A DNA stretch of 64,000 nt from the NCBI RefSeq assembly GCF_058153355.1, contig NZ_CM177019.1; one strand, given 5' to 3'. Below are positions 10,520 to 57,375 of this stretch, piece by piece; position 1 is the first letter of the stretch, and the number at the start of each line of letters is the position of its first letter. The notes under the pieces were generated by a model. It was given only the letters and a program-made list of their open reading frames with translations, was not told where the DNA came from and did no database searches. The translations under genes and the position numbers were made by a program.

Positions 10520-11035
<516 letters not shown>

Positions 11036-11042
11036 CACTAAC

Positions 11043-12053: not shown

Positions 12054-12112
12054 TTACCTCTTTCCCCCTTTAGTTCAGTATAAAATCATCAAACTAATGC
12101 TGTTCACACTAT

Positions 12113-13309: not shown

Positions 13310-13360
13310 TTGCAAAGTTTGCCCCCAATTTGCCCCATTTAGTACCAGAGAACTGAAATA

Positions 13361-28042: not shown

Positions 28043-29468
28043 TAATGCCAGTCAGTTAAGCAACTGACTGGCTCTTTTTCGGGGCTGTGGGGTATTTCCA
28101 GGGCCTCTCCTTTACCACTCTCGGGAAGGCCCTTTCCCTTCTTGTCGGTAATTTCACAAGTTGTCCCATACTTGCAAGATCGCGCATCAGCTCCGGTATA
28201 CGTCCCGGTGAAGCGCCCTGCAATGTCATCAGCATTCTCATCACCATTCCGCATGATTCTGAGAAACTCAGTTGATTCGGCCAGTAACCTTTCAGATGTT
28301 CCGCCATTTTAATCATCTGATATCTCACCAGATTATAAGCCAGTAAGACACCCCACAGCTCTTGCTCCACAAGCTCCGGCTTTTTACTTCTCAGCGTCAG
28401 CCTGCTCAGTTGCATCGTCTGTTTTATCTCCCTGTATCCCAGTTCGATTTCCCAGCGATGACTGTACAGATCCGCCATTTCTCCTCCGGGGAAGCGCATG
28501 GCGTCCGTCATCGACGTCAGCAGATGGCAGACTTTTCCTTTGCGCGTCACGGTCAGCAGGCGGGCTGTCACTTCATTTCCCAGTCCCGGCCACTTTTTTC
28601 GTGCCTGCGGGCTGGTTTTCAGCTTCACCAGATGATCGCCTTTACCCAGTTTTCTGATCTCTTCATATTGCGCTCCCTTTCTGAGAGGTATCATCCAGTG
28701 GCGGTGTTCTCCCGCCAGGCTCCAGGCATTTAACAGTCCCAGTGAGTAATAACCTTTATCCATTAACGTCAGAGTGTTATCGCCGGTTTGTTCTATAAGT
28801 TGCTCAGCAAGCTCATTTTCGCTGTTCTTCATCGTGCCGAAGGCTGCAGCCGTCAGCAGATGGCTGGTCAGTTCCATCTGGCAGACCATTTTGACCTGCG
28901 GGTAGAGCGCCGGGTTCCCGGCATGTGTCTGGCGGGGGAAGGCTGCATCGTTCTCTGGTGTATCCGGTGTGCGCCAGAACACACCATCGATGGCCAGCAG
29001 GGTCAGGCCGCACCAGTGCGGATGCGGCGTGGCGTTATGCCAGAGCTGCGCTGTTTTCGTGAACACGCGGCGGACAGCCTCACTTCCCAGGCGCTGGCGG
29101 GCCTGAATAACGGCACTGGGGGCAACGAAGGGGCGATTGCCCGGCAGCATGATGTCCAGGCGATTCACAATCTGGTGAAGAGGTTCTTTACGCTCAAGCG
29201 CCATGCCAACAATACACCAGACCATCATTTCGAGGGGAAGACGGCGCTTGCGTAGCGTTACAGTACCTGATTCGGCAAGGCAACGAGAGATGAGTTCGGG
29301 GTCGAGGTAATCCCCCAGAGAAGTCAGTGGGTTACGCAGAGAATCGTAACGGGATACCAGATCAAGAGCCTGTCCAATGTGCATAAAAAAATCCGGAAAC
29401 AAGTGAGCGTTTCCGGATTCTTACACAGCCACTGGATCGGTCAACTGATCCTTAACTGATCGGCATTA
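28043..29468 (-). mobile_element. IS4 insertion sequence, 1426 bp, intact
   Basis: terminal inverted repeats TAATGCCAGTCAGTTAAG... (28043) and ...CTTAACTGATCGGCATTA (29468); identical 13-bp direct repeats CACCTCTTAGCTG at 28030..28042 and 29469..29481; single transposase ORF. Confidence 0.9.
28056..29384 (-). CDS. insG: IS4 transposase (InsG-like, 442 aa from [10 protein letters not shown])
   Basis: translation matches recalled IS4 transposase ([77 protein letters not shown]...). Confidence 0.9.
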
Positions 29469-29627
29469 CACCTCTTAGCTGGATTTACAATCAACGCATT
29501 GATTAGTTAGCTAATGTTGCTACTTCCTTCCCTGACTATTGATGATCTGAATGAATTGTCGCGGTAAAATAGCCCCGCCAGGGGTTTCCGGCATGACGAC
29601 AATTATCTGGAGGAGCCTGATAAAACA

Positions 29628-30659
29628 ATGATCGCTGAACTGTTTACAAATAATGCGCTTAATCTGGTCATTATTTTCGGTAGCTGCGCAGCATTGATTC
29701 TGATGAGCTTTTGGTTTCGCCGCGGAAATCGTAAAAGAAAAGGATTTTTATTCCATGCGGTGCAATTTTTAATCTACACCATAATTATCAGTGCTGTTGG
29801 TAGCATCATTAATTATGTTATAGAAAACTATAAACTCAAATTTATCACCCCAGGCGTTATCGATTTTATCTGTACGTCCCTGATTGCGGTTATTCTGACG
29901 ATTAAGTTATTTCTGCTGATTAATCAGTTTGAAAAACAGCAGATTAAAAAAGGTCGTGATATCACCAGTGCGCGGATTATGTCGCGTATCATCAAAATCA
30001 CCATTATTGTGGTACTTGTTTTGCTTTATGGCGAACATTTCGGCATGAGCCTTTCTGGCTTGCTGACCTTTGGTGGTATTGGTGGTCTGGCTGTCGGTAT
30101 GGCCGGTAAAGATATTTTGAGTAACTTCTTTTCCGGGATTATGCTCTATTTCGACCGTCCTTTTAGTATTGGCGACTGGATCCGTTCACCGGACAGAAAT
30201 ATCGAAGGTACAGTAGCGGAAATTGGCTGGCGAATTACCAAAATTACGACCTTTGATAATCGTCCGTTATACGTCCCGAACTCGCTGTTTTCGTCTATCA
30301 GCGTAGAAAACCCGGGGCGAATGACCAACCGACGTATTACCACGACAATCGGTTTACGTTATGAGGATGCGGCAAAAGTGGGAGCCATTGTCGAAGCCGT
30401 ACGTGAGATGCTTAAAAATCACCCAGCCATCGACCAGCGACAAACCTTACTGGTTTATTTCAACCAGTTTGCTGACTCGTCATTGAATATTATGGTTTAT
30501 TGCTTTACCAAAACCACAGTATGGGCTGAATGGCTTGCCGCCCAGCAGGATGTTTATTTGAAGATTATCGATATTGTACAGTCACACGGCGCGGATTTCG
30601 CGTTCCCAAGCCAGACGCTGTATATGGATAACATTACACCACCAGACCAGGGTCGTTAA
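29628..30659 (+). CDS. ynaI: MscS-family mechanosensitive channel YnaI (343 aa)
   Basis: N-terminal TM helices followed by MscS beta-domain ([26 protein letters not shown]). Confidence 0.85.
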
Positions 30660-30672
30660 TTCAGACATCACT

Positions 30673-30700
30673 GGCGTTACCCACAAGGGTAACGCCAGTT
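30673..30700. terminator. bidirectional hairpin between convergent ynaI and mppA
   Basis: ctggcgttaccc-acaa-gggtaacgccag. Confidence 0.6.
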
Positions 30701-30704
30701 CACA

Positions 30705-32318
30705 TCAATGTTTCACAATATACATAGTCCGGCTATACGCCACATCTTCCGGGTTATTAATGGGATAACCTTTCAGCCACGGCTTGATTAATCGTCCATT
30801 GGTATATTGATAAATTGGTGCAATCGGTGCTTGCTCCATGAGGATTTTTTCTGCCGCATTGTAATCGGCATTACGCGCTTTAACGGTATTTTCCGTCGAT
30901 GCCTGGGCCAAAACTTTGTCGTAGGCCGGGTTGTTAAAGCGTGAAATGTTGCCTGAATGCGTTGACGTTAATAATGTCAGGAAGGTGGAGGGTTCATTAT
31001 AATCCCCCACCCACGAGGCGCGGATAACATCAAAATTACCTGTATTACGACTATCGATATAGGTTTTCCATTCCTGATTTTGCAATTTAACATCTACGCC
31101 AAGGTTCTTTTTCCACATCGATGCTACAGCAATCGCAATTTTTTGATGGTTTTCTGAAGTGTTATACAAAAGCGTCAGCTTCAGCGGTTTTTGCGGACCA
31201 TAACCAGCGGCGCTCAACAAAGTTTTTGCCTGCGCATTCAGTTCTTCCTGACTCATTTGTTCAAACGGCGAAGGTTCCGGCGTAAATCCCGCGGTAACAT
31301 CTGGTGTAAAATGCCACGCTGGCTTTTCGCCCGTCCCCAACACTTTTTCGGTCATCAGGCGGCGATCTATCGTCATACTTAATGCCAGGCGAACGCGCTG
31401 ATCTGCCGTCGGCCCTTTTTGCGTGTTAAACGCATAATAATAGGTCCCGAGCTGCGGCGGCGTATAAACCTGCCCCGGAATATCCTTCAACAGCTTCTGA
31501 TACATATTTTTCGGGAAGGATTCGGTGATATCAATATCCCCCGCGAGGTAACGCTTAGTGGCTGCGGATTCCTGATTAATTGGCAGGAAGGTCACTTTTT
31601 GCAGTACCGTTTTGGCGTTATCCCAATAATGGGTATTCGGTACCACGACCAGTTTTTCATTGACTACGCGCTCTTTAAGAACATAAGCGCCATTGCCGAT
31701 CAGATTTCCGGGTTTCGTCCACTCTTTACCGCTTTCTACGTTGGCTTTTTGCACCGGGAAGAAGGCAAAGTTAGCGGTTAAATTCACAAACCACGGCAAC
31801 GGTTTATCAAGCTGAATTTTCAAAGTATGGGCATCAACTGCGGTGACGCCAAGCTGGTCAGGCGTAGCTTTACCATCAATAATCGCCTGTGCGTTGTTGA
31901 TTCCCGCCAGCGCGGCAAACCATGCAAATGGCGATAGAGTTTTCGGGTCCACCAGACGCTGCCAGCTGTAGACAAAATCTTGCGCCGTTACCGGTATGCC
32001 ATCCGCCCATTTTGCGTTATCGCGCAGGGTAAAAGTCCAGATACGGTTGTCATTACTTTTCCACTGAGTCGCAACGCCGGGGACAATCTCCCCTTTCTCG
32101 TTCTGATTCACCAGTCCTTCAAACAGATCGCGAATGACCTGAATCTCCGGCAGGCCCACGGCTTTAGCGGGATCCAGCGACGCAGGCTCATCTTTAATGT
32201 GGCGCACCAGCTCCTGCTTCTCTGCCAGTACTGTGCCGCTCGGAACTTCTGCAGCATACGAAAGAGAAATGCTGCTGACCAACAGCGCACAACACGTGAC
32301 TGAAACAGAGTGCTTCAT
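30705..32318 (-). CDS. mppA: periplasmic murein tripeptide-binding protein MppA (537 aa from MKHSVSV)
   Basis: family-5 solute-binding protein (OppA paralogue) with signal peptide. Confidence 0.9.
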   Translation of the reverse strand: MKHSVSVTCCALLVSSISLSYAAEVPSGTVLAEKQELVRHIKDEPASLDPAKAVGLPEIQVIRDLFEGLVNQNEKGEIVPGVATQWKSNDNRIWTFTLRDNAKWADGIPVTAQDFVYSWQRLVDPKTLSPFAWFAALAGINNAQAIIDGKATPDQLGVTAVDAHTLKIQLDKPLPWFVNLTANFAFFPVQKANVESGKEWTKPGNLIGNGAYVLKERVVNEKLVVVPNTHYWDNAKTVLQKVTFLPINQESAATKRYLAGDIDITESFPKNMYQKLLKDIPGQVYTPPQLGTYYYAFNTQKGPTADQRVRLALSMTIDRRLMTEKVLGTGEKPAWHFTPDVTAGFTPEPSPFEQMSQEELNAQAKTLLSAAGYGPQKPLKLTLLYNTSENHQKIAIAVASMWKKNLGVDVKLQNQEWKTYIDSRNTGNFDVIRASWVGDYNEPSTFLTLLTSTHSGNISRFNNPAYDKVLAQASTENTVKARNADYNAAEKILMEQAPIAPIYQYTNGRLIKPWLKGYPINNPEDVAYSRTMYIVKH

Positions 32319-32374
32319 AAGTTTCCCTCTAACCGACATTAAAATTGATGCGTAATTATTTGTTTCGCCTTAAA

Positions 32375-32411
32375 GAAATGCAAACAACTTCCATCAAAAA
32401 AGTGACAAAGG
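32375..32411 (+). repeat. copy A of a ~35-bp repeated intergenic element (mppA upstream)
   Basis: GAAATGCAAACAACTTCCATCAAAAAAGTGACAAAGG; near-identical copy at 36371..36408. Confidence 0.6.
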
Positions 32412-32654
32412 AAGCATCAAATGTTTTAAGTATCAATATATCAAATCAGATTTAGTGTAAATAATAGTCTCCAAAATGCGGTAAAGCACATAGAACTCCG
32501 AACACTACGTTCGGGCTTCGCACGTTCAAACCCGTTTTCGGTATCATAATCAGCATCTGTCGCCATTGTACGAAGAATAAAAAATAACCAAAACGTTGAA
32601 AGGAACTGAGAATACGTTAAGAGAAGAATTAAATTAATGTATCAGCAAGTAGTG

Positions 32655-33554
32655 CTAAACAGCACCTTTATACTTCAGCCTATCTATAAATAATGAGAAT
32701 GCCGAGCCAGCATGTCGACGGTGTGGATAGTACAGGTGATAACCGGGTAAATCTGGTGTGAATTTATCCAAAACACGTATCAGTTTTTTTTCTTTAATAG
32801 CCCGCTCAACCTGATCATAAGGTAGATACGCCAATCCATGCCCATCAATTGCAGCATCAATGATCAGGTCTATCGTATTCAGTAAAAGCTGACCTTCCAT
32901 GCGAACACGAACTTCACGTCCACCGCGTATTAATCTCCAGCGATTTGCTGTACCCGATGTGGGAAGATACAAATTAATTGCCTGATGATCTATTAATTGT
33001 GACACTGACGTTGGAGCACTTCGACGAGAAAAATAATCCGGTGAGCCAACAATAGCCATTGGTATATCTGGCCCGATTCGAATGGCGATCATATCTTTAT
33101 CCATCTCCCCACCCAGACGGACGCCTGCATCAAAACGTTCAGAAACGACATCGGTCAAACCATAATCAATGGTAAGCTGGATATCAATTTCAGGATGCGA
33201 TTTCAGGAATGTGCGCATAGCTGGTAACAATATCGTTTTTGCTGCATGTTCTACAGTAGTAATACGTATTGTCCCGGATGGGCGGTTCTGCAGATCGCTC
33301 AGGGATGTCAGGGCAGAATCTATGTCATGCAACATAGGGCCAAGAACAGACAAAAGATGCTCGCCCGCTTCAGTGGGTACAACGCTGCGCGTGGTTCGCG
33401 TCAGAAGCCGCAATCCCAATCGTTCTTCTATACGGCGCACTATCTGGCTTAAAGCTGACTGCGCCATGCTCAGGCGGGCTGCTGCGCGAGTGAAGCTACG
33501 CTCCTCTGCAACGACGACAAACGCCATCAGATCAGCGATTTCTTCACGCTTCAT
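32655..33554 (-). CDS. pgrR: LysR-type regulator PgrR/YcjZ (299 aa)
   Basis: N-terminal LysR HTH (LMAFVVVAEERSFTRAAARLSMAQSALSQIVRRIEE); divergent from ycjY. Confidence 0.8.
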   Translation of the reverse strand: MKREEIADLMAFVVVAEERSFTRAAARLSMAQSALSQIVRRIEERLGLRLLTRTTRSVVPTEAGEHLLSVLGPMLHDIDSALTSLSDLQNRPSGTIRITTVEHAAKTILLPAMRTFLKSHPEIDIQLTIDYGLTDVVSERFDAGVRLGGEMDKDMIAIRIGPDIPMAIVGSPDYFSRRSAPTSVSQLIDHQAINLYLPTSGTANRWRLIRGGREVRVRMEGQLLLNTIDLIIDAAIDGHGLAYLPYDQVERAIKEKKLIRVLDKFTPDLPGYHLYYPHRRHAGSAFSLFIDRLKYKGAV

Positions 33555-33578
33555 TCAGTATCTCCATACAATCTATTA

Positions 33579-33621
33579 ATCATTTAAATGATAGGTCTAA
33601 TCATAATTTAGGGTCTAATCA
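33579..33621. promoter_or_regulatory. putative LysR-type operator in pgrR-ycjY divergent region
   Basis: perfect palindrome ATCATTTAAATGAT (T-N11-A type) followed by direct repeats GGTCTAATCA x2. Confidence 0.35.
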
Positions 33622-33679
33622 ACTTAATGATCAATATCTATAGTGATATCACCAACCGTCAAAACGAACCGACAACTCC

Positions 33680-34612
33680 ATGAGGAACGGAATGATGAAT
33701 AATAAAGTCAGCTTCACTAACAGCAATAATCCAACCATCTCTTTGTCTGCAGTGATCTATTTCCCTCCAAAATTTGATGAAACCCGTCAGTATCCGGCAA
33801 TTGTGGTATCTCACCCAGGTGGGGGCGTTAAAGAGCAAACGGCCGGAACCTATGCCGAAAAACTGGCGGAAAAGGGATTTGTCACTATTGCTTATGACGC
33901 ATCTTATCAAGGTGAAAGCGGCGGCGAGCCGCGTCAGTTAGAAAACCCATACATTCGTACTGAAGACGTCAGTGCCGTGATTGATTACCTGACAACGCTT
34001 TCTTATGTCGACAATACCCGAATTGGTGCGATGGGAATTTGTGCCGGTGCAGGATATACAGCCAATGCTGCAATTCAGGATCGCCGCATCAAGGCCATCG
34101 CTACCGTTAGTGCGGTCAATATTGGTTCGATGTTCCGTAATGGTTGGGAAAACAATGTGAAATCTATTGATGCCCTACCATACGTTGACGCGGGTTCAAA
34201 CGCCCGAACCAGCGATATTAGCAGCGGAGAATACGCCACTATGCCACTGGCACCAATGAAGGAGTCCGATGCGCCGAACGAAGAACTGCGTCAGGCCTGG
34301 GAGTATTACCACACCCCTCGCGCGCAGTATCCAACAGCACCGGGTTACGCTACTTTGCGCAGCCTTAACCAGATTATTACCTATGATGCTTACCATATGG
34401 CGGAAGTGTACCTGACTCAGCCGATACAGATTGTGGCGGGCAGCCAGGCAGGGAGCAAATGGATGAGTGACGACCTGTACGATCGAGCATCAAGCCAGGA
34501 TAAACGCTATCACATTGTTGAAGGCGCAAACCATATGGATCTTTATGACGGCAAAGTCTATGTGGCTGAATCAATTTCAGTATTAGCTCCGTTCTTTGAG
34601 GAAACTCTGTAA
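33680..34612 (+). CDS. ycjY: alpha/beta-hydrolase family protein YcjY (310 aa as ORF)
   Basis: hydrolase-fold protein; context matches ycjY; true start may be the internal MMNNK. Confidence 0.75.
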   Translation: MRNGMMNNKVSFTNSNNPTISLSAVIYFPPKFDETRQYPAIVVSHPGGGVKEQTAGTYAEKLAEKGFVTIAYDASYQGESGGEPRQLENPYIRTEDVSAVIDYLTTLSYVDNTRIGAMGICAGAGYTANAAIQDRRIKAIATVSAVNIGSMFRNGWENNVKSIDALPYVDAGSNARTSDISSGEYATMPLAPMKESDAPNEELRQAWEYYHTPRAQYPTAPGYATLRSLNQIITYDAYHMAEVYLTQPIQIVAGSQAGSKWMSDDLYDRASSQDKRYHIVEGANHMDLYDGKVYVAESISVLAPFFEETL

Positions 34613-35551
34613 TGAAACATATTCAAATCCGTAATAGTGATATGGCCTGGCATATTGCTGCCAATATTCAGTTTCCACCAAATTTTGATGAGTCAAAACA
34701 GTATCCGGCGATTATCAGCGTCCATCCTTTTGGCAGTTGTAAGGAGCAGACGTCTGGCAATATCTATGGCAAGGCATTGGCTGAAAAAGGCTATGTCGTT
34801 CTCGCTTATGACGCCAGTTTCCAGGGAGAATCTGGTGGGGAGCCTCGTTGGATAGAAGATCCGACACAGCGCGTAGAGGATATTAGCCGTGTTATCGATT
34901 ATGCAGTAACTCTGCCATATGTTGATGCTGAACGCATTGGCGTGCTGGGTGTGTGTGTGGGGGGGGGGGGGTGGCTATGCCATTAATGCCGCGCTGACAG
35001 AAAAACGAATTAAAGCTGTAGTGAGTATTACGGGTGTTAATATCGGGCGTCTTTTTCGGGAAGGTTTCAGCAATTACGATCCGATTGGCGCATTGAATGC
35101 AATGGCGTCGCAACGAACCAAAGAGGCTCGTGGTGGAGAATTACAGATCAACGAATTACTTCCCGCCAGCCTGGATGCAGCAAAAGCCCATGGACTGACC
35201 GAACGCGATGTTTATGAAGCAACTGACTACTATAAAACACCACGCGGGCAACAACCGGGAGGTGCGACAAAAATGTTGTTCTCACATGCACAGAAAACGC
35301 TGGCCTGGGATGCCTTCGCATTTACTGAAGTGTTACTGACTCAGCCGGTGATGGTAGTAGTTGGTGAAAAAGTCGGTGCCTTCGGTGCTTATCGTGATGG
35401 ACTGGAAGTCTATGGCCGGGCGATGGTTTCGCAGGATCGTCAGTTAGTTTCGTTACCCGATTTCTCACATTATGAACTGTATGACAAACCGGAAGCAGTT
35501 CAGGAGGCGCTGGAAAAAGTTATTCCTTTTTTCAACACCCATCTGGGATAA
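34612..35551 (+). pseudogene. ycjY-paralogous alpha/beta hydrolase, frameshifted at a (GT)4-G12 tract
   Basis: ORFs 34612..34986 and 34919..35551 are collinear with YcjY residue-by-residue (DAERIGVLGVCVGGG | YAINAALTEKRIKAVVSITGVNIG... versus YcjY DNTRIGAMGICAGAGYTANAAIQDRRIKAIATVSAVNIG); reading frame switches inside gtgtgtgtg + 12 G (34951..34971). Confidence 0.7.
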
Positions 35552-35556
35552 GTTTC

Positions 35557-36207
35557 ATGAGAAATATTATGAAAAAAGTACTCATTCTTGGTGCTGGCGG
35601 TCAGATAGCCCGCCATGTGATTAATCAACTGGCAGATAAACAAACCATTAAACAAACTTTATTTGCTCGTCAGCCAGCAAAAATACACAAACCCTATCCA
35701 ACTAATAGCCAGATTATTATGGGGGATGTACTGAATCATGCAGCACTGAAGCAGGCCATGCAGGGACAGGATATTGTGTATGCCAACCTTACGGGGGAAG
35801 ATTTAGATATTCAGGCAAATTCAGTGATCGCTGCGATGAAAGCCTGTGATGTTAAACGTCTGATCTTTGTTCTTTCCCTCGGCATTTATGATGAAGTTCC
35901 AGGAAAATTTGGCGAATGGAATAATGCAGTTATTGGTGAGCCCCTAAAACCATTCCGCAGGGCTGCGGATGCAATTGAGGCTTCTGGACTGGAATATACA
36001 ATTCTTCGCCCTGCCTGGCTGACTGATGAAGATATTATTGATTATGAGCTTACCTCACGCAATGAACCATTCAAAGGTACGATCGTATCACGTAAGAGTG
36101 TCGCAGCATTAATCACAGATATCATCGATAAACCTGAGAAACACATTGGTGAGAATATAGGCATCAATCAACCCGGGACTGATGGTGATAAGCCCTTCTT
36201 CATGTAA
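35557..36207 (+). CDS. NAD(P)H-binding NmrA/SDR-like protein (216 aa)
   Basis: N-terminal Rossmann motif VLILGAGGQIARHV; I recall only a fragment (ymjC) at this position in K-12. Confidence 0.7.
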   Translation: MRNIMKKVLILGAGGQIARHVINQLADKQTIKQTLFARQPAKIHKPYPTNSQIIMGDVLNHAALKQAMQGQDIVYANLTGEDLDIQANSVIAAMKACDVKRLIFVLSLGIYDEVPGKFGEWNNAVIGEPLKPFRRAADAIEASGLEYTILRPAWLTDEDIIDYELTSRNEPFKGTIVSRKSVAALITDIIDKPEKHIGENIGINQPGTDGDKPFFM

Positions 36208-36370
36208 ATCAATTATATAGCTACCATCGTACTGTACTATGTGCAGTACGATTTATTAAACTTATTAAGGTGAACTGATCAATCAGATGCGATTAACATG
36301 TGTAGAACCAGTAAGAATAAAATACGCCATGTATATAACATTACGACAATTCTAATATCTGCACATCAAT

Positions 36371-36408
36371 GAAAATACAAACAACTTCCGGCAAAAAAGT
36401 GATACAAG
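36371..36408 (+). repeat. copy B of the ~35-bp repeated intergenic element (mpaA upstream)
   Basis: GAAAATACAAACAACTTCCGGCAAAAAAGTGATACAAG; about 90% identical to 32375..32411. Confidence 0.6.
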
Positions 36409-36497
36409 ATCGATAACATAGCGTTGAAGAAAAGGATTTGATAATCCGCAAAATTTGCACAACACTGCCTGTAATACTTCCTGAACCAGAGACGATT

Positions 36498-37226
36498 ATG
36501 ACCGTAACCCGCCCACGCGCCGAACGCGGCGCATTTCCGCCCGGAACAGAACATTACGGACGTTCATTATTGGGCGCGCCGTTAATCTGGTTTCCGGCCC
36601 CTGCAGCCAGTCGCGAAAGTGGTTTGATTCTGGCTGGCACTCACGGTGATGAAAACTCTTCGGTCGTCACGCTCTCCTGTGCTCTGCGGACTTTGACACC
36701 GTCTTTGCGCCGCCATCATGTAGTGCTGTGTGTGAATCCTGACGGCTGCCAGTTAGGGTTACGGGCCAATGCTAATGGTGTGGATTTAAACAGAAACTTT
36801 CCGGCGGCGAACTGGAAGGAGGGTGAAACGGTTTATCGCTGGAACAGCGCGGCTGAAGAACGTGATGTCGTATTACTGACAGGTGACAAACCTGGCTCCG
36901 AACCTGAAACCCAGGCGCTGTGCCAGCTTATACACCGCATTCAACCTGCCTGGGTGGTCTCATTCCACGATCCACTGGCCTGTATTGAAGATCCCAGACA
37001 CAGCGAATTAGGCGAATGGCTGGCCCAGGCGTTTGGATTGCCTCTGGTAACCAGCGTCGGTTATGAAACTCCTGGCTCTTTCGGCAGTTGGTGTGCGGAT
37101 CTCAACCTGCATTGCATCACCGCAGAGTTTCCACCTATCTCCTCCGACGAAGCCAGCGAAAAATACCTCTTTGCGATGGCTAACTTGCTGCGCTGGCATC
37201 CTAAAGATGCAATGCGCCCGTCGTGA
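36498..37226 (+). CDS. mpaA: murein peptide amidase A (gamma-D-Glu-Dap amidase, 242 aa from MTVTRPRAERG)
   Basis: zinc-carboxypeptidase-like motif GTHGDENSS; 3' end overlaps convergent ycjG by 26 bp. Confidence 0.85.
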   Translation: MTVTRPRAERGAFPPGTEHYGRSLLGAPLIWFPAPAASRESGLILAGTHGDENSSVVTLSCALRTLTPSLRRHHVVLCVNPDGCQLGLRANANGVDLNRNFPAANWKEGETVYRWNSAAEERDVVLLTGDKPGSEPETQALCQLIHRIQPAWVVSFHDPLACIEDPRHSELGEWLAQAFGLPLVTSVGYETPGSFGSWCADLNLHCITAEFPPISSDEASEKYLFAMANLLRWHPKDAMRPS

Positions 37227-38166
37227 ATTGAAGCGCTGGTTCCACATCTACCGCCAGCCAGGTCGGTCCGTCAAGATCAGCAAAACTGACCTGCGGCACC
37301 AGCGGTAAAGCGGCGCTAATGGCACGAGAGGTACACAACATGCAGCCCAGCATCAGACTGAAACCTTGTGCACGCGCTTCGGTCGCCAGCGCCAGCGCTT
37401 CCGTCAGGCCACCCGTTTTATCGAGCTTAATGTTAACCATCTCATAGCGCCCTTTCAGCGCCTTCAGATTGCTACGAGTATGACAACTTTCATCTGCACA
37501 AATCGGTAACGGATGAATAAAATTCTCCAGTGCCGCATCGTCCTGCGCAGGAAGCGGTTGTTCAAGCATCGCAACGCCTAAATCCGCCAATAGCTGGCAA
37601 CGCGCCGCCAACCCTTCTGCACGCCAGGATTCATTTGCATCAACGATTAGCGTCGCATCGGGTACAGCCGTGCGAATTGCTACCATCCGCTCACTGATAA
37701 GATGGTTATCCAGCTTCACTTTCAGTAATTTCGCGCCTGCCTGCCAGAGTGTTGATGCACTATTGGCCATCTGATCAGGCGTACCGATGACTACCGTCTG
37801 GGCAGTGGTGACTGTCTCGGGAAGCGTTATGCCGATCAAATCAGCCAGCGATTGCTGCTGTTTTCGCGCCGCCAGATCCCACAATGCACAATCCAGCGCA
37901 TTACGTGCTGCGCCGGCAGGGAGAATTTTTTGCAACTCCTCCCGTGTCAGCCCTTTCTCTAATTGCGGCACGACGCTCATAATTTGCGCCATTACCGAGG
38001 CATCACTTTCTCCATAACGCGGATACGGCGTGCATTCACCGGTGCCTTTAATACCTTCTTCTTCCAGTTCAACCACCACCACGCGCGCTTCACTACGACT
38101 TCCCCGAGCAATCACAAACGGGGTATGTAAGGGCCAGGCTTCCTCAAATACCTTAACGATTCTCAT
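37201..38166 (-). CDS. ycjG: L-Ala-D/L-Glu epimerase YcjG (321 aa from MRIVKVFEEA)
   Basis: enolase-superfamily (MR/MLE) fold. Confidence 0.85.
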   Translation of the reverse strand: MRIVKVFEEAWPLHTPFVIARGSRSEARVVVVELEEEGIKGTGECTPYPRYGESDASVMAQIMSVVPQLEKGLTREELQKILPAGAARNALDCALWDLAARKQQQSLADLIGITLPETVTTAQTVVIGTPDQMANSASTLWQAGAKLLKVKLDNHLISERMVAIRTAVPDATLIVDANESWRAEGLAARCQLLADLGVAMLEQPLPAQDDAALENFIHPLPICADESCHTRSNLKALKGRYEMVNIKLDKTGGLTEALALATEARAQGFSLMLGCMLCTSRAISAALPLVPQVSFADLDGPTWLAVDVEPALQFTTGALHL

Positions 38167-38284
38167 CTTTACTCCTTGTTGTCGCGGTGGTCTGCGGATT
38201 AAGCGCAAATAGCGTTTGCTGTGTTATTGACAGTTAGCATAAACTAGGTGTGACGTTAACTATATGTAAACAGGAAAGATAATC

Positions 38285-38788
38285 ATGTCACAAACCGTTC
38301 ATTTCCAGGGCAACCCGGTTACAGTAGCCAATTCCATCCCGCTGGCGGGTAGCAAAGCGCAGACTTTTACTCTCGTGGCAAAAGATCTGTCTGACGTCAC
38401 CCTCGGTCAGTTTGCGGGTAAACGCAAAGTGCTGAACATTTTCCCGAGTATTGATACCGGTGTTTGCGCCGCATCAGTACGTAAGTTTAACCAACTGGCA
38501 ACTGAGATCGACAACACCGTTGTGCTGTGTATCTCTGCCGATCTGCCGTTCGCCCAGTCTCGTTTCTGCGGCGCAGAAGGTCTGAACAACGTTATCACCC
38601 TCTCCACTTTCCGTAACGCTGAATTCCTGCAAGCCTACGGTGTGGCAATTGCTGATGGCCCACTGAAAGGTCTGGCAGCGCGTGCCGTTGTGGTTATCGA
38701 TGAAAATGACAATGTGATTTTCAGCCAGCTGGTTGATGAAATCACCACCGAGCCGGATTACGAAGCAGCTCTTGCTGTACTGCGCTAA
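38285..38788 (+). CDS. tpx: thiol peroxidase Tpx (167 aa)
   Basis: atypical 2-Cys peroxiredoxin with peroxidatic Cys in [10 protein letters not shown]. Confidence 0.95.
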
Positions 38789-38795
38789 ACAACTG

Positions 38796-38835
38796 TGCCG
38801 TTCACTGAATCACCACCGGTGAACGGCAGTTTTTG
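38796..38835 (+). terminator. rho-independent terminator of tpx
   Basis: tgccgttcac-(13 nt loop)-gtgaacggca followed by gttttt. Confidence 0.7.
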
Positions 38836-38929
38836 ATCTACCAATCCCACTATTTTCCAGAGTTCCTGCCACTATTCCCCCTAACCGTTGTGCATTAAGA
38901 TTGTTCTTTGCCATTATTAGCCCAGCGGA

Positions 38930-40984
38930 GTGATGACTATTATGGATGATAAACAAATTACGGTCTGGCTTAAACACAATTGCTGTTCAACGGACATTCC
39001 TGCCATTGCCGAGGCACTAACGAACCATGCAGAATGGCTTTTAGAGCTAGCGCCAGATCCTATTGAACAAGGTAGTTCATGTTTACCGCCGACAGCTGCA
39101 GCCGGTATTTTTCTTGGCGCAGCGGCGATGGTTCACTGCGGCGAGGCTAGTGGTGCAGAAACCTGGCTCGAAGCAGCCATTACTGATTACCATTTCTTTA
39201 ATCCAAATGGATATAGTTCATGGAGAGGCAGTACGCCTGTTTTTACAGCATTATCGCGTTACCCGGCATTAAGAATGGTGTTATTTAACGCCGCTTGCGC
39301 AATGGAAGACTGGAATAAAGCATCCGCTGTTCTTGAATCGCTTTTCCATGCCGGCGATGTCCCGGAAGATAACCCTGTCGCCCCAAATTTTACCCCTTAT
39401 GCGCTGAAAGCGTTTATCGCGGATTACCACCCGTTAGGGCCTGCTTATTATGATGAAACCTGGTTGCTGGCAAAACAAGCGTGGTTAATTAATGCGGGCG
39501 TTCTGGATGAGCGAACCTGTAATACCTGGAAGCAATATACCCGCCACTTGCGCCATTTGATCCACAATACACAGTTTGCCGATGCGCTCTCTTTTGTACG
39601 CAGTAAAAAAGAACCGTTAAATCATATCCATACCTACTCAGACTTTTATCTGTATGCGATTGGTTTATTTTCTTATACTAGTCAGCTAAATGAAGCGCTG
39701 ACCTGGATAAAACAGTTAATCCACAACAATGATGGTCATTTCTGTGATCTTTTCGTTTCAACTGGCAAAGAGCGCCGAATAAAGCCTGAACTTAGTACCT
39801 TGCTGAATAATCTCTTGCACAGCGCAGAGTTTCAGGCGTTGCAGGATAAATATCTCACCGTCGGACATGATGTTGTGTATTCTGGTCCCTTCATGTCACT
39901 TTATGAAAAGGTTCTTGGCGGTAAGTCCCGAAAGCGCTGCGCGATTAGTCGAAAATTAATCTCGCCCGGCGAAGCGGTTTATGAATATCGTCAGCTGGAT
40001 AGTGTGGAATATATTGCAGCAAAAGCGGCCTTTCAGACATCTGAGCTAAATAATATCGCCCACCGGCATCATAATGATAGTTATCAGTGGCATGAATTTG
40101 CTGCCCAATGGCCTCGTCGGGGTTCACTTTCTCACCCAGATATTGCCCGTTATTTGTTTGAGCGCCAGGAAGGAAAATGCTTTGATGCCGCAGAGTTTAT
40201 ACAACTGATTGCGGAACCGTTTGTCTTTCCGATGCGTTTCATATGGGTTGCCGGGTTGTCCTTTGAATTACATCAGTATCCGGATGCCTATTTCGTAAAT
40301 GACAATATGGCGGGTGAATTTGTTAATCTCTGCTGGATGGCTATGAAATGCGGACATGCTGGAGACATTTTCAAACAACTGGCCCACGAGCCGCATGACG
40401 TTGCTGACCCTATTTACGCCATGCTCGCCACGTTTGACCGCGCTGATTGCCGTAGCGCCGCCGCCGCGCACTTTGGACAACCGGAACTACCGGAAATAAT
40501 GGCACTGGCTTTCAGTTCGAGGTTATCGCTGGACAGCGTCCTTACCATCGCTGAGTTTGGTAAAAATCAGCCGCGATTTTCACATGCGCTAGCAACGGCC
40601 CTCCTGCGTTACAACCTGCACATCTACTCAAACTATATGCCGCAGGTTAACTGGTTCCTTCAGGGGCTGGAACACTATGCTTTGGCAAAAGGCGGTCAAC
40701 TTTTAAATTTCTTTGTGCATATTCCAGAACAAATTCCCGTTCTGGCGACCATGCTGGAACATGGCGTATTAGTGCGTGGGATCGGTGAAGGTGCCTACGA
40801 TGGTTATGATAATTCAGCAAATTCATTTCATCATGCCGCCGTGATGCACTGCCTCACGCACGCGCCGGAAAAAGTCCGCTACTGGATGGAAACACCCTGG
40901 ATTCAGAACTATTTAGTGAATGCGCCGCTGCGTCAAACGGCGCGCCATGTGGAAGCCTGGCATAAAAAGTTTGGCATCAAATGA
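38930..40984 (+). CDS. uncharacterised 684-aa soluble protein (no recognisable domain)
   Basis: single long ORF with GGAG SD before the second ATG; no Walker A, HTH, DDE or TM signature; Cys/His/Trp/Tyr-rich; lies between tpx and tyrR. Confidence 0.7.
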   Translation: MMTIMDDKQITVWLKHNCCSTDIPAIAEALTNHAEWLLELAPDPIEQGSSCLPPTAAAGIFLGAAAMVHCGEASGAETWLEAAITDYHFFNPNGYSSWRGSTPVFTALSRYPALRMVLFNAACAMEDWNKASAVLESLFHAGDVPEDNPVAPNFTPYALKAFIADYHPLGPAYYDETWLLAKQAWLINAGVLDERTCNTWKQYTRHLRHLIHNTQFADALSFVRSKKEPLNHIHTYSDFYLYAIGLFSYTSQLNEALTWIKQLIHNNDGHFCDLFVSTGKERRIKPELSTLLNNLLHSAEFQALQDKYLTVGHDVVYSGPFMSLYEKVLGGKSRKRCAISRKLISPGEAVYEYRQLDSVEYIAAKAAFQTSELNNIAHRHHNDSYQWHEFAAQWPRRGSLSHPDIARYLFERQEGKCFDAAEFIQLIAEPFVFPMRFIWVAGLSFELHQYPDAYFVNDNMAGEFVNLCWMAMKCGHAGDIFKQLAHEPHDVADPIYAMLATFDRADCRSAAAAHFGQPELPEIMALAFSSRLSLDSVLTIAEFGKNQPRFSHALATALLRYNLHIYSNYMPQVNWFLQGLEHYALAKGGQLLNFFVHIPEQIPVLATMLEHGVLVRGIGEGAYDGYDNSANSFHHAAVMHCLTHAPEKVRYWMETPWIQNYLVNAPLRQTARHVEAWHKKFGIK

Positions 40985-40992
40985 ACGTTGCC

Positions 40993-41013
40993 GCTGCGCC
41001 TGAACGGCGCAGC
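40993..41013. terminator. hairpin between the 684-aa ORF and tyrR stop (no T-run)
   Basis: gctgcgcc-tgaac-ggcgcagc. Confidence 0.3.
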
Positions 41014-41021
41014 CAGCACAA

Positions 41022-42563
41022 TCACTCTTCGCTTTTCTTCTGGTTTAAGCCATATTCCCGCAACTTATTGGCAATCGCGGTATGCGAAACGCCGAGACGT
41101 TTTGCCAGTTTGCGCGTGCTGGGATAATTGCGATAAAGCTGAGTTAATACCGAGCGTTCAAAACGGCTGGTAATTTCGTCCAGCGAACCTTCCATCGCAT
41201 CTTCGCCCACGGCTACCGTTGCGGCGTCATAATCCGGCAACAAAATATCCTGAGGACGCAGCTCATAGCCGTCCAGTTGTGTCAGTGCGCGATAGATAGC
41301 GTTCTTTAACTGCCGCACATTTCCCGGCCACGCATAACGCGTAAGTACAGTATTCAGGTCAGCGGCCAGTTTCGGACGCGGCACGCCCTGCTCGTCGGCA
41401 AAGCGAGCGACGAACAGTTCAGTTAACGGCATGATGTCCTGCGGACAGTCACGTAACGGCGGCAGATTGAGCGTCAACACGTTCAGACGATAATAGAGAT
41501 CTTCACGGAACACGCCTTTTTGCACCAGTTCGACCAAATTCTTCTGCGTAGCGCAAATAACCCTTACATCGACATGCACTTCATGATCTTCACCAACTCG
41601 ACGGAAAGTACCATCATTAAGGAAACGCAGTAATTTCGCCTGCATCCTTGGCGACATCTCGCCTATCTCATCTAACAGCACCGAACCACCGTTCGCCTGC
41701 TCAAAGAACCCTTTTTTACCTTCCGGAGCATGACCAAACAGTTCACTCTCGACCGCATCTTCCGGTATAGACGCGCAGTTCAGCGCCAGGTAAGGTTTGC
41801 CCGCTCGTGGGCTTGCCTGATGGCAGGCGTAGGCAAAGAGATCTTTACCTGTACCGGTGTCACCCGTAATCAGCAACGGCGCGCTTAGCATCGCCAGTTT
41901 CTGCGCCTGTTCGACAACATGCTTCATTTTCGGGCTGACGGCGACAATTTGACTGAAGGCACTGACGTCCTGTGCAGCGACATTCTGCAACTGACGGCCC
42001 ATACGAATCGTCGAGCGCAACATCACCACCGCACCGGTCAGAACGTGTTGATCATTTTCATCCTGAAGATAAACAGGCGTAATCTCCATCAGGAAATTCT
42101 GCCCATTAATAACGACATGCTCGTTATGCGAGTCTTGCGGTTCGCTTTCCAGCCAGCGTAAAAAATTAAAGCCGTTAATTAATTGCGCGGCGGTATGGTT
42201 GCGCAGGCGATCCAATTTTTGCCCAAAAAGCTGACAGCTCGCCGGGTTCGCCATATCCACTTTGCTTTTCATATCAACAGAAAGCACAGGTTCAGGCAAC
42301 GCCTCCAGTAACGCGCTCAACGCCAGATGCTCACGTTCGGAAGGCATCCACGGGACAGTACGCACATCGGTAACACCTGCAATACGGCGTATTTCGGCCA
42401 TCAGACTGCTGAAGCTCTCAAACTCCAGTTCAGCAAAATTGAGGTAGATTCGCCCAATGGGGTCAATCTCAATACCGCGTAAATCAATGCCTCTCAGCAC
42501 CAGTAAATCGAGTAATTCGCGGGTCAGACCAAGTCGGTCTTCACAAAAGACTTCCAGACGCAT
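41022..42563 (-). CDS. tyrR: tyrosine repressor TyrR (513 aa from MRLEVFCEDRLG)
   Basis: ACT/PAS N-terminus, AAA+ domain with GDTGTGKD, C-terminal HTH; lacks the GAFTGA loop, as expected for TyrR. Confidence 0.95.
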   Translation of the reverse strand: MRLEVFCEDRLGLTRELLDLLVLRGIDLRGIEIDPIGRIYLNFAELEFESFSSLMAEIRRIAGVTDVRTVPWMPSEREHLALSALLEALPEPVLSVDMKSKVDMANPASCQLFGQKLDRLRNHTAAQLINGFNFLRWLESEPQDSHNEHVVINGQNFLMEITPVYLQDENDQHVLTGAVVMLRSTIRMGRQLQNVAAQDVSAFSQIVAVSPKMKHVVEQAQKLAMLSAPLLITGDTGTGKDLFAYACHQASPRAGKPYLALNCASIPEDAVESELFGHAPEGKKGFFEQANGGSVLLDEIGEMSPRMQAKLLRFLNDGTFRRVGEDHEVHVDVRVICATQKNLVELVQKGVFREDLYYRLNVLTLNLPPLRDCPQDIMPLTELFVARFADEQGVPRPKLAADLNTVLTRYAWPGNVRQLKNAIYRALTQLDGYELRPQDILLPDYDAATVAVGEDAMEGSLDEITSRFERSVLTQLYRNYPSTRKLAKRLGVSHTAIANKLREYGLNQKKSEE

Positions 42564-42710
42564 GGGAACCTTCACCTGAAAAAAGAACAATTAATATGAT
42601 GATATGACACTATTTGGATAGCAGGAAGGTTTCTGTCAACAATCATTGACACAAAGACGGAAAAACGGGCACTTCGGCGTAAAGATATCCGGTCAGCACC
42701 CGATATTGCA

Positions 42711-43772
42711 TTATTTTTCGCTGGGCGTTTTGCCTTTTTGCAGCGTCTCTTTCACCTGACCGATAAGCTGACGACGGAAATCCCCGAGGCGAGGTTTGTC
42801 ATCGTCAATCCACGGCAGCGGGCGGCAAAGCTCCATAGCTTTAATCCCCAGTCGCGCCGTCAGAAGTCCAGCACCAATCCCCTGAGCTGCGCGGGTAGAC
42901 AAACGCGCAGCGAGATCTTGCGACATCCAGTCCATCCCCACTTCGCGCACCAGTTCGCTGGCTCCGGCGAAAGCGATATTCAGCAATACCAGCTTAAACA
43001 GGCGCAAACGGCTGTAATATCCCAGTTCAATGCCATACAGCGTGGCGATGCGATTGATCAAACGCAGATTGCGCCAGGCGATAAATGCCATATCCACCAG
43101 CGCCAGCGGGCTAACGGCGATCATTAACGTTGATTCCGCCGCTGAGCGACTGATTTCGCGCCGCGCCTGAGCATCTAAAACCGGCTGGACCAGATGAGCA
43201 TACAGGCTGACCACTTCACGATCGTTCTGCGTTTCATGGATTGACGCATACCAGCGTTGCAGCGCCGGATGGGACTGATCAATACCCGCCTGCTGCGCCA
43301 GTTTTTCACAAAATGCGCGGCCTTTGCCCGTGCCGTGGCTGTGCAATAAATCACGCGCTTCGTCGCGTTCATGGGCGCGCTGTCGCAAGCGCCATAAGCG
43401 CCGCCACTCTGTTACCACAGAACCTACGCCAGCGCCGATAATCAATGCCCCAGCGGCACATCCACCCAGCGCTACCCAATCCTGAGTTTGCCAGGCATTC
43501 ATCGTCCACTGCACGCCCTGTCCGACAACGCTTGCACCAAACAGAGCCAACCCGCCCATCACCATTTTGCGCCACAGGCTGCGTTTCGGACGTAACGCCG
43601 CGTCCATCACCGCTTCAACTTGCCCCTCTTCTTCCTGCGCTTCGTCGAGCGTGGCCGGGGCAAAATTTTGCGCCTGATTTTCGTCAAAGGTCTGCTGCGC
43701 CCTGAATTTTGGATTCTGATCGACCTCCAGTGGACCGTCGAAATCAATACGTGGTTTTAACGGTTCGGTCAT
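42711..43772 (-). CDS. ycjF: UPF0283 membrane protein YcjF (353 aa)
   Basis: 353-aa ORF with TM helices; 4-bp overlap with ycjX stop. Confidence 0.8.
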
Positions 43773-45166
43773 CGCAATTTATCTCCTATTAAAAATTCCA
43801 GCGCAGCATCAAGGCGAATATGCGGCAACGGTTTGTCGACATCCATCACCTGCGGGCGAAACGCCTCAAACTGGAAGCCTTGCTTATCCCAGAACGCCTG
43901 GCCAGGCAAACGTGCGGGAACTTCGCCAGGATACACAGTGAGCGGTGCGCCATCGCTGAGTCGATTACCGCGCAGCGCCGGGATTTTCTCACCGTTAACA
44001 TCAATAATGCCGCTGGTGGTCGCCTGAACTGACGCCAGCCCCAGGCAGTCCATGCTGATCCCTTCGAACGCCGCATTTTGCCAGGCATCCTGAATCAGTT
44101 GTTGCAGTAATGAAACCATATTGGCGTGCTGATCGATGGTCACATGATCCGCTTTAGTGGCAGCAAACAATAGCTTATCGATAACCGGCGAAAACAAGCG
44201 CCGGAACAAGGTACGCTGCCCGTAGTGGAAGCTTTGCATCAGCTGCGTCAGCGCCAGACGCATATCATTGAATGCTTGTGGTCCACTGTTGAGAGGTTGC
44301 AGGCAATCCACCAGCACAATCTGCCGATCAAAGCGCAGAAAATGATTTTTATAGAACCCCTTCACCACTTTCTCGCAGTAATAATTAAACCGTTCGCGCA
44401 GCATTCCGGCATTGGTGTGCTTGTCGGCCTGTGCAAGTTTTGATTCGCCCCAGGCATCGACATCTGGCCACGGGAAGAATTGCAGCGCGGGCGCACCTGC
44501 CATATCGCCCGGCAAGACAAAACGCCCAGGCTGAATAAAGTGCAGCCCCTGCTGTTTGCAGTGGTGGAGATAATCGGTCCATGCGGCAGCAATGTCTGCA
44601 AGACGGTTTTCGTCGGCAGGTGCTAGTGGGTCCAGCCCTTCGCACATCATTCGCCATTTTGCCGACCATTCGCCGCGCTGACCATTGAGTAAGCCTGTCA
44701 TCTGGCGCGACCAGCTTAAATAGTCCTGCGCCAACATCGGCAAGTCGAGTAACCATTCGCCAGGATAATCCACTATCTCCAGATACAACGTGGAAGTGTC
44801 TTTGAAGTGACGCAACAGCGAATCGTTCGATTTATAGCGTAGCGCCAGGCGAATCTCACTGACGCCGCGTGTTGGGGTCGGCCAGGCGGGAGGATCGCCA
44901 TATAACTGCGCCAGCCCTTCATCGTAGGTGAAGCGCGGAATGCCAAAGTCACGCTGGGGAATGCGTTTTACGCCCAGCAGGCGCTCTTCACGCACCGCAC
45001 TTAATAGCGGCAAGCGTGCTCCGGCATGAATATTGAGCAACTGATTGACCATCGCAGTGATAAACGCGGTTTTGCCGCTGCGGCTAAGTCCGGTTACAGC
45101 GAGGCGCAGATGTCTGTCGACACCCCGATTCACCAGCGCATTAAGTTCATTTTTAAGTCGCTTCAT
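43769..45166 (-). CDS. ycjX: P-loop NTPase YcjX (465 aa from [10 protein letters not shown])
   Basis: Walker A GLSRSGKT. Confidence 0.8.
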
Positions 45167-49125: not shown

Positions 49126-51389
49126 TCATCCTCCTGATGCGTGGTAGCGGTCCCATTGAAGGGCAAAATAAAATCACCCAAACAGAAAACAGATTCCTCA
49201 GCCACGGATATAAGCTGACCGTTCAAACGCATTGAAACGGGCGCAGAAGTTCGAATCGCAATACGCTGCGCGTCGAGAGTGACCTGTAATTCGCAGCCCT
49301 GCCAGAACAGAGGGAAAGATAACTGTTGCCACTGCTCAGGTAACGCTGGGTTCAGATGTAATTCGCCGTCGCGCACGCTGACTCCGGCAAAACCCTGAAT
49401 CGCCCCCAGCCAGATAGCGCCAGTTGCGGCGGCATGGATACCGTCATCGCAGCTATGCGGATCAGCACCAAGATCGATTTCACTCCCCTCGCGCCAGAAC
49501 GGGTAACTCTGCGCAAGCAAGCCACAACGCGCGGCAACAATGCCGTGGATCGCTTTACTCAATGACGAGTCGTGAATGGTGCGCGGTTCATAAAATTGCA
49601 GATTGGCGAGACAAGAGGCCGCTGAAAATTGTTCTGGTAGCATGTAATTGAGCATCACCACATCGGCCTGCTTGAGGATCTGCATCTCGTTCACTTCTGC
49701 GCGTGAATAATCCAGCAGAATGGTTTGTTTGCCTGCTGCCGCTTTGTATTTCGCCAGATCTATCGCCGGTTTCGCCATAAACGAATCATCCTGCGGCAAA
49801 ACGCCGTCGGGCTGAATTTCTGGCATCCACAGCTCTTTGAGGAACATGTCGGCACGATGAATAAACGCATCGTCGCTACAGCCAAACTGGCGAGCAATAT
49901 TCAGTGCCTGTTGGACGTTGTAGCAGGCCATATAACTTGTGTATGCGTTATTGTTAACGTGTTCGGTATATTCGTCTGGCCCAATAACATCATGAATTTC
50001 CAGACGATCGTTAACCCTTACCGCGCGGCTAATCCAGAACTTTGCGGTCTCCAGCAGTAGCGCCATGCCTTCGTGAGCAATGAAGCTTTCATCCCCCGTT
50101 ACCTGCCAGTATTGAATAACCGCCCAGGCGATATCGGCAACCAGATGATGTTCTGCCTGCGCTGAGGCCACTTTTTGCCGCAGCCCGGTACGAATGTTAA
50201 TGGCGGCAAATTCCGGCGTTTCTTCTTCGCCGCTACGTGCGCTCTCCCACGGAAACAGCGCGCCCTGCCAGCCATTGCGTCGCGCTTTCTCCTGCGCGCC
50301 AGGCAAGTTGTGCCAGCGATAGCGCAGTAAACTTCGGGCAATCGTCGGTTCGCTAAACAGATGGAACGGCAGCAGGAACACTTCCGTATCCCAGAAAACG
50401 TGGCCTTTGTAGCCTTCGCCGGTTAAGCCTTTCGCCGCAATGCTGCTACGCTCGTCGTGGGCGGGCGTCATAATACGTAAATGATAAAGCGCATAGTCTA
50501 ACGCCCGCTGATCGTGCGCATCGCAACTGTTTACCGTGACACGACGTTTCTGCCACCATTGCTGCCAGTTTTCTGTGGATGCTGCAAGAAGTTGGTCATA
50601 ACTCTGCTGCGCGCACATTTCGAGCTGGCGAAGCGACGCACTGCCCCACTCGTCTAAAGCAGCTTGTCGGTCGTCCCGCCAGGCAATCCACACCCGCTTT
50701 TGCAAGGTCAGTGTCTCACCTGTGCGAAGTTGCGCGCTGGTATGTTGCAGCAAACGGCGCTCTTTTGCGGTATAGCACTGCTGAACGTCACCACTCGCCT
50801 GACAGTGACAACTGATTGCCACATCACTGCGCCCATCCTGGGTGGTGTAGATCCCCTGCATCAGGTGCTGACCGAACACCCGCACCTGGGTTTCGTCAAG
50901 ATGCTGGCGACCGTGGTTGGTTTGCGTGGCGTTAATGCCTGTTGAGATCAGCACTGATGCCTCGGCGTCCAGCGGGGTAATACTGATTTCCAGCGCGATC
51001 AACGGCAGTTGATCTGTCGAAACAAAGCGACGACTTGCAAGGGTGAACCCTGCGCCGTCGCTGGTGCGCCAGATAACACTGCGGCGTAATTCTCCACTGG
51101 CAAAGTCAAGCTCACGCTGCCACGCTTCGCGGGATAACGAAAAAATCTCGCCGTTTAGGGTAATTTCCATTCCCACCACGTCTGGCAGATTCACCAGTTC
51201 GTTGATTTCACCTTTCCCGGCTCGATGATAAAGCCCTGCCAGATACATGCCGCGCGTCTGCCGCGTGTAATCTTCTTCATGGCTGGCACGAAGCCCAAGA
51301 TAGCCGTTTCCCTGCGCCATTAATGAGGCATATTTATTCAGGGTATGCTGGCTGAAATGGGGTTCCGTTAATGTTACTGGCCTGGTCAT
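49122..51389 (-). CDS. ycjT: GH65 disaccharide (kojibiose-type) phosphorylase YcjT (755 aa)
   Basis: GH65-family length and composition; 4-bp overlaps with both neighbours. Confidence 0.8.
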
Positions 51390-52441: not shown

Positions 52442-52450
52442 AAAGACCTC

Positions 52451-53239: not shown

Positions 53240-53255
53240 TTTTCCGTTCTTAGAA

Positions 53256-54308: not shown

Positions 54309-54338
54309 GTAAAACTCCTTGTCAAGAAACTGGCCGCT

Positions 54339-56049: not shown

Positions 56050-56069
56050 TGCGGATTCCTGTCCTGGGA

Positions 56070-57362: not shown

Positions 57363-57375
57363 GAGATGTTCCTTT

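Follow-up and report, generated by a model that had tools for sequence, protein, structure and literature searches.

Simple-sequence contingency loci built on poly-G or poly-C runs are known from Haemophilus influenzae, Neisseria, Campylobacter jejuni, and Helicobacter pylori. The locus described here resembles them in several respects, i.e., it contains an intragenic G/C homopolymer of at least eight bases, its length changes are of the slipped-strand type and move the gene in and out of frame, and its alleles differ among close isolates. In contrast, the tracts of contingency loci are conserved, selectively maintained features of genes for surface structures or modification, whereas the tract of this work is a recent derivative of interrupted Gly codons and lies in a cytoplasmic-type hydrolase. 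It also differs from them in that only some lineages have it, most of its alleles are out of frame, and other signs of decay accompany it.

Reversible frameshifts in G/C runs have also been described in enzyme genes of highly clonal pathogens, with length polymorphism among otherwise identical genomes, and the tract shares these properties. In Mycobacterium tuberculosis, drug tolerance and reversion have been demonstrated for the 7C tract of glpK (10.1101/717272; PMC10334774), and homopolymer-tract variation has been reported in Bordetella pertussis (PMC1891110). Compared with that of glpK, the present tract is longer (up to 15), is compound with a GT repeat, and falls on a predicted catalytic motif, so that its in-frame length variants would also change the active site, unlike those of glpK. 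G/C runs are scarce in E. coli according to a survey of Escherichia homopolymers that does not name the hydrolase locus (PMC8928963). Our literature search found no papers on simple-sequence-repeat (SSR) contingency loci in E. coli, and a prior description of this tract was not found in the searchable literature on ymjD/ycjY, Z2444, or homopolymers and phase variation in O157. The slippage mechanism is classical.

The window, i.e., the whole stretch of 64,000 nucleotides that was analyzed, carries the tract in the second gene of an operon that starts with ycjY and ends with mpaA. The features of the region are as follows:

32655..33554, minus strand: pgrR (ycjZ), the divergent gene for the LysR-type repressor of the operon (from the ORF listing and related annotations)
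33692..34612, plus strand: ycjY, the upstream paralogue and first gene of the operon (PDB 5xb6)
34612..35551, plus strand: the complete frameshifted hydrolase gene, paralogous to ycjY and retained in K-12 only as the remnant ymjD
34612..34986, plus strand: first portion of the hydrolase gene, an ORF of 124 aa in frame 0 whose product ends in GVLGVCVGGGGWLCH; its stop codon, TAA (34984-34986), follows the frameshift
34949..34958, plus strand: (GT)5 dinucleotide repeat, GTGTGTGTGT, located by script
34959..34971, plus strand: uninterrupted G13 homopolymer forming the poly-Gly codons of the nucleophile elbow and followed by TGGCTATGCC, located by script
34972..35551, plus strand: remaining portion of the hydrolase gene, free of other lesions and in frame +1 with respect to the first
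35569..36207, plus strand: intact gene of an SDR/NmrA-type oxidoreductase, of which K-12 has only the remnant ymjC
36498..37226, plus strand: mpaA, which closes the operon and encodes the murein tripeptide amidase (from the ORF listing and related annotations)

The ATG of the hydrolase gene overlaps the stop codon of ycjY (TAATG), and the SDR gene starts 18 nt past the hydrolase stop. A promoter/terminator scan, whose performance was at chance level, gave no terminator-like site on the plus strand between ycjY and mpaA. The PgrR regulon lists ycjY-ymjDC-mpaA (PMC5934670). A loss of translational coupling and a polar effect of the frameshift on the SDR gene and mpaA are possible. In related genomes, the counterparts of the hydrolase gene are annotated by PGAP as 'alpha/beta hydrolase, frameshifted', and the N-terminal fragment corresponds to Z2444 of O157:H7 EDL933, which has 122 aa and derives from a G9 allele.

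The K-12 remnants occupy the same locus and the same position in the operon. Of the hydrolase gene, K-12 keeps the first 58 nt (ymjD), and of the SDR gene it keeps about 146 nt (ymjC); the remnant 'genes' measure 66 nt and 183 nt, respectively. Two separate deletions, equivalent to positions 34670-35562 and 35708-36367 of the window, account for the K-12 sequence (NC_000913.3, 1390680-1390933). The genes of K-12 have been lost irreversibly by deletions, whereas in the window both genes are still present and the tract is the only inactivating lesion.

Read directly, the sequence around the tract is GGC GTG CTG G, followed by GTGTGTGTGT, GGGGGGGGGGGGG, and TGGCTATGCC, and the repeat lies within the coding region, where codons 113-120 read GGT GTG TGT GTG GGG GGG GGG GGG. 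The first-pass annotation had described the same 21 bases as (GT)4 plus G12, but the uninterrupted run is G13 and the repeat is (GT)5. It had placed the tract at the exact frame switch of the ycjY-paralogue gene, and in the ORF listing the frame change of the hydrolase gene (34612-35551) does coincide exactly with the tract, where the ORFs in frames 0 and +1 meet. The alignment also bore out its statement that the sequences around the tract are collinear with YcjY. Once the tract is normalized, the gene of the window contains no other stop codon and shows 0 differences with respect to the in-frame sister allele. The loss of 1 base restores the frame and yields a 312-aa protein, as had been anticipated, and this same allele exists naturally in sister isolates (L012 and L024).

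Such a long G tract had been regarded as rare, and this is the case here, since it is the only homopolymer longer than 8 found by script in the 64-kb window and G13 appeared in 0 of 100 dinucleotide-preserving shuffles. From the base composition of the window, about 0.0014 G/C runs of 13 or more are expected per 64 kb, i.e., about 0.1 per 5-Mb genome.

The frame-restored protein matched YcjY (PDB 5xb6; E=3.6e-68, residues 12-307) and PA2218 (2hdw; E=1.3e-40), as well as the Pfam families Peptidase_S15 (2.8e-10), DLH (1.9e-07), and Abhydrolase_1 (2.2e-07), while no NCBIfam model reached its cut-off. According to this full-length similarity to solved members, it is predicted to be a Cys-type alpha/beta hydrolase of the YcjY/PA2218 (DLH-like) group. 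It appears to have the alpha/beta fold in common with YcjY, PA2218, and the dienelactone-hydrolase-like Cys hydrolases; the G-x-C-x-G elbow occupies the same alignment position as in the YcjY/PA2218 group, and the C-terminal S/N-H-x-[DE]-LYD motif is conserved, although the identity with YcjY is only 43%. Homologues from Klebsiella variicola, Serratia, and many alphaproteobacteria share 80-87% identity with the hydrolase, and this identity across distant genera points to an enzyme that is clearly functional and strongly conserved where it has been kept.

The (GT)5 repeat and its flanking G's encode Gly113-Val114-Cys115-Val116, and the codon of the putative catalytic Cys is the TGT at 34954-34956. 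In the canonical protein, the elbow G-V-C-G-G-G-G-Y aligns with G-I-C-A-G-A-G-Y of YcjY, that is, with the G-x-Cys-x-G nucleophile elbow, and G-V-C-G-G also aligns with G-I-C-G-W of PA2218, in agreement with the Sm-x-Nu-x-Sm pattern. An AF2 model of the in-frame variant, of moderate confidence only (mean pLDDT 60.5) and thus used solely for the position of the elbow, places Cys115 where strand 104-114 passes directly into helix 115-129. The alignment also contains candidates for the His and acid residues of a catalytic triad, namely the invariant His286 (SHY[ED]LYD) and the invariant Asp262/Asp291.

The Cys and the Tyr of the elbow are separated by 4 residues in 8/8 aligned cross-genus homologues, which come from Klebsiella, Serratia, and six alphaproteobacterial or other distant taxa, and also in the canonical E. 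coli allele (L008). The tract of the window is 7 nt longer than the canonical one, and its G13 run is 5 G longer than G8, the shortest pure-tract allele. In the in-frame (GT)5G12 product, which reads GVCVGGGGGY, a Val and a Gly are inserted right after the Cys, and this product is probably impaired. The 124-aa product of the window is 190 residues short at its C-terminus, the missing part containing the invariant His of SHYELYD, and for this reason the window allele is presumably null.

Most of the E. coli strains that keep the gene have an interrupted in-frame allele, GGA GTG TGT GGG GGT GGT GGC (L008, L009), which is present in about 870 of about 1280 gene-bearing complete genomes. Citrobacter and Pseudocitrobacter (Citrobacter sp. 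Awk 4 and a Pseudocitrobacter MAG) read ATT TGC GGC GGC GGT GGC, with no G run. Two synonymous changes, GGA>GGT and GGT>GGG, lead to GGT GTG TGT GGG GGG GGT GGC, i.e., (GT)4G8. A G5 tract had been predicted from the YcjY alignment, and a tract shorter by 7 nt is indeed canonical, but the common ancestral allele is GGGGG-T-GG-T-GGC and not a plain G5. The lineages that carry the (GT)nGm microsatellite include O157:H7, O55:H7, O145, and that of the window. The series of alleles is as follows:

(GT)4G8: in frame (L006)
G9: out of frame (L004, L010)
G10: out of frame (L005)
G11: in frame, with one additional Gly (L003)
(GT)5G10: out of frame (L002)
(GT)3G15: out of frame (L001, O55:H7 DEC5B)
T-less G10: out of frame (L007)
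(GT)5G12: in frame, 312 aa (L012, L024)
(GT)5G13: out of frame (the window, L015)

The alleles range from G8 to G15 and from (GT)3 to (GT)5 among otherwise identical gene sequences, as would be expected from the slipped-strand hotspot that had been proposed. All indels are confined to the tract, the 337 nt before it and the 576 nt after it being of constant length in 13/13 full-length copies. Among the five O157/O55 copies, no two share a tract allele; four of these copies are identical at every other aligned position, and the codon differences between the fifth (L010) and the window match those of the other four. Within O157:H7 alone, G8, G9, G10, G11, and (GT)5G10 are all found. Judging from the five O157/O55 copies, the mutation rate of the tract would be thousands of times the per-site substitution rate, and the tract appears to be a genuine slipped-strand hotspot.

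The full hydrolase gene is present in 1271 of 5426 complete E. coli genomes. Exact queries of 89-90 nt detected G8 in about 80 complete genomes and G9 in about 222, while identity bands and match lengths gave about 80-90 with G10, about 6 with G11, 3 with (GT)5G10, and 1 with (GT)3G15. About 80% of the pure-tract complete genomes are out of frame and about 20% are in frame. Exact protein look-ups in a collection of 15 billion proteins returned at least 1000 contigs for the G9 fragment and at least 1000 for the G10 fragment, 363 for (GT)5G10, 63 for G12, and 74 for G13. The N-terminal fragment exactly as encoded in the window was absent from this collection. The in-frame products of G8, G11, and G14 were encoded on 937, 797, and 40 contigs, respectively. 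Partial proteins that break off at the start of the tract or immediately ahead of it were found on 235 contigs (P0128/P0129), and L016 ends there too. These contig ends would be at most an indirect hint of the frequent, reversible switching in clonal cultures (about 1e-5 to 1e-2 per generation) that characterizes contingency genes. Most of the length variation is considered real, because variants in the number of GT units cannot be homopolymer miscalls and because the Illumina-derived counts are large.

Seven contigs with an identical YcjY were compared to the window. One of them (L012, GCA_015332025.1) is one G shorter than the window and otherwise the same over 6.9 kb, and another (L024, SRR8656992) aligns with positions 29444-44613 with 0 mismatches and one gap over 15,169 nt; both have G12 and are in frame. 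A Logan assembly (L015, SRR31441161) is the same as the window over 6.9 kb, G13 included. The comparison of related strains recommended in the first-pass annotation has thus revealed a variable tract, with G12 in sisters that are identical elsewhere. The next lineage (L013/L014), about 30 SNPs from the window, combines (GT)4G9 with the nonsense mutation Q242*.

In the three regions compared (2000-14000, 30000-42000, and 50000-62000), the window is at most 97-98.4% identical to any of the 5426 complete E. coli genomes, so it would come from a rare or divergent E. coli-like lineage. Outside the tract, however, only 3 positions distinguish the window hydrolase gene from the O157:H7/O55:H7 copy, which suggests that this segment is unusually conserved or was exchanged by recombination.

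Some lineages carry a second lesion. The O145 strains present Q71* on top of the tract variation, and the O157:H7 copies have no lesion besides the tract. Two O145 genomes, RM9872 and RM9873-C1, differ over 40 kb by two single-G losses only, both in RM9873-C1, i.e., G9 to G8 in the tract and G5 to G4 in the SDR gene. The SDR gene of RM9873-C1 (L019, NZ_CP031347.1, locus ~20800) is annotated as frameshifted through this G4. These two losses are a probable homopolymer error of the finished genome, and part of the tract-length variation in finished genomes may be technical. The use of these two strains as a second isogenic tract pair was downgraded, given the assembly-error-like loss in G5 and the presence of Q71* in both.

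We consider it likely that the tract is a hypermutable repeat that inactivates a dispensable gene, in a manner that is reversible in principle, and not a selected contingency switch. Two synonymous substitutions turned the interrupted Gly codons into (GT)4G8, and replication slippage would then change the tract by one G or one GT per step. In the window, (GT)5G13 shifts the frame, and translation stops at 34984-34986. The removal of one G, as in a sister isolate, reopens the frame with the additional Val and Gly at the active site, and only the removal of 7 nt regains the canonical enzyme. The hydrolase would be dispensable in E. coli, and the tract would act as a hotspot for the first, reversible-in-principle hit of gene loss. 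The decay of a dispensable gene is supported by the out-of-frame majority, by the secondary lesions in related lineages, and by the fact that about three quarters of E. coli are without the gene. The first-pass annotation had left an on/off switch, a recent pseudogenization, and a sequencing error side by side; the inactivation of a dispensable gene is now favored, the evolved switch was not supported, and a ±1 miscall is unlikely for the reasons discussed below.

An adaptive contingency locus, in which ON/OFF switching is beneficial, perhaps also via polarity on the SDR gene and mpaA, is in our opinion improbable. As in phase-variable genes, in-frame and out-of-frame alleles occur among close isolates, both in near-isogenic pairs and within O157:H7, some of the differences being perhaps technical, and the in-frame G8, G11, and G14 are found on hundreds of contigs (937 + 797 + 40). 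The O157:H7 copies are free of a second lesion, the gene belongs to a regulated operon, and the enzyme appears functional where it is kept, so that a toggle of some selective value is conceivable. Furthermore, one of the features selected for outcome prediction in O157:H7 maps to 'putative protein YcjY', assigned to peptidoglycan degradation (PMC12711010), but it is not traceable to the tract in the text or supplements of that work. Against a repeat that is kept by selection and has a functional ON product, the tract was found to be derived and restricted to certain lineages, and it is recent, most gene-bearing E. coli and Citrobacter having interrupted codons. G9 and G10 dominate, and with about 80% of the alleles out of frame, the in-frame fraction in complete genomes does not reach the one third that random lengths would give. 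In addition, nonsense mutations have been fixed in two tract-bearing lineages, and the gene has been deleted in most E. coli. The long in-frame alleles break the C-GGGG-Y spacing, invariant in the relatives examined, and the window needs a change of -7 nt, not -1, to recover the canonical enzyme. That an E. coli contingency locus has evolved in a few lineages besides the O157:H7/O55:H7/O145 group, and in that group itself, to toggle the hydrolase stochastically is quite improbable. If it were true, the toggle might extend by polarity to the oxidoreductase and MpaA, the in-frame variants would tune the active site, and both the recycling of peptidoglycan fragments and the interaction with the host would be affected by the tract. 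A regulatory role would make this a rare SSR phase-variable locus in E. coli that affects a peptidoglycan-recycling operon.

A homopolymer miscall, by which the strain would truly be G12 and in frame and the frameshift of the window would be a ±1 artefact, is compatible with the inactivation of a dispensable gene and, as anticipated above, unlikely. The two same-lineage assemblies L012 and L024 are G12, errors are common in long G runs, some related contigs (L016, P0128/P0129) stop at the tract or immediately ahead of it, and the finished O145 pair differs only by technical-looking 1-G deletions in G runs. However, the separately stored L015 is also G13, with the caveat that it may share its isolate or reads with the window, and the out-of-frame majority in thousands of assemblies, GT-number variants included, makes G13 entirely plausible. 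A frameshifted gene could also remain leaky if slippage of RNA polymerase, or +1 slippage of the ribosome (tRNA-Gly on GGG GGG), yielded some full-length protein. Runs of identical codons permit perfect re-pairing after a +1 shift, which counts in favor of such a recoding, and nothing in the sequence forbids it. G13 is also longer than the 9-bp RNA:DNA hybrid (PMC5574713). In the E. coli transcriptome, however, slippage insertions are seen only in A/T runs, G and C runs not being prone to them, and on this basis a rescue by transcriptional slippage was judged unlikely (PMC5574713). Moreover, the 0-frame codon past the run is an ordinary TGG, no stimulatory element was noted on reading the sequence, and a rescued product would keep the Val and Gly at the active site. 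Thus, we regard a rescue by recoding as highly improbable.

The hypermutable repeat that inactivates a dispensable gene, the explanation that we favor, would provide a natural, population-wide case in which a Gly-rich catalytic motif gives rise, through two silent substitutions, to a runaway microsatellite that then inactivates the gene. In the genomics of O157:H7, this site is expected to yield spurious or unstable variant calls, contig breaks, and discrepancies between pseudogene and intact annotations, and the tract should be masked or handled explicitly.

Other observations concern the surroundings of the tract. A 684-aa ORF (38930-40984, plus strand) lies between tpx and tyrR and is missing from K-12, where tpx and tyrR adjoin. 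A 'hypothetical protein' appears among the annotated features of those related complete genomes whose match spans the entire 12-kb query. The ORF has no Pfam match on record and no NCBIfam or PADLOC match. One Logan contig (P0002) encodes a 489-aa hydrolase-SDR fusion, in which a deletion has brought the end of the hydrolase gene next to codon ~30 of the SDR gene; this fusion is another independent rearrangement at the hydrolase/SDR locus. In several O55:H7/O157:H7 genomes, IS2 and IS1203 are located between the SDR gene and mpaA, and IS66-family genes are found beside a truncated ycjG-like gene downstream of mpaA (IS positions 4200-5428 in L001, 4480-5693 in L002, and 5480-5935 in L005). The presence of these IS elements beside the operon indicates further erosion of the region.
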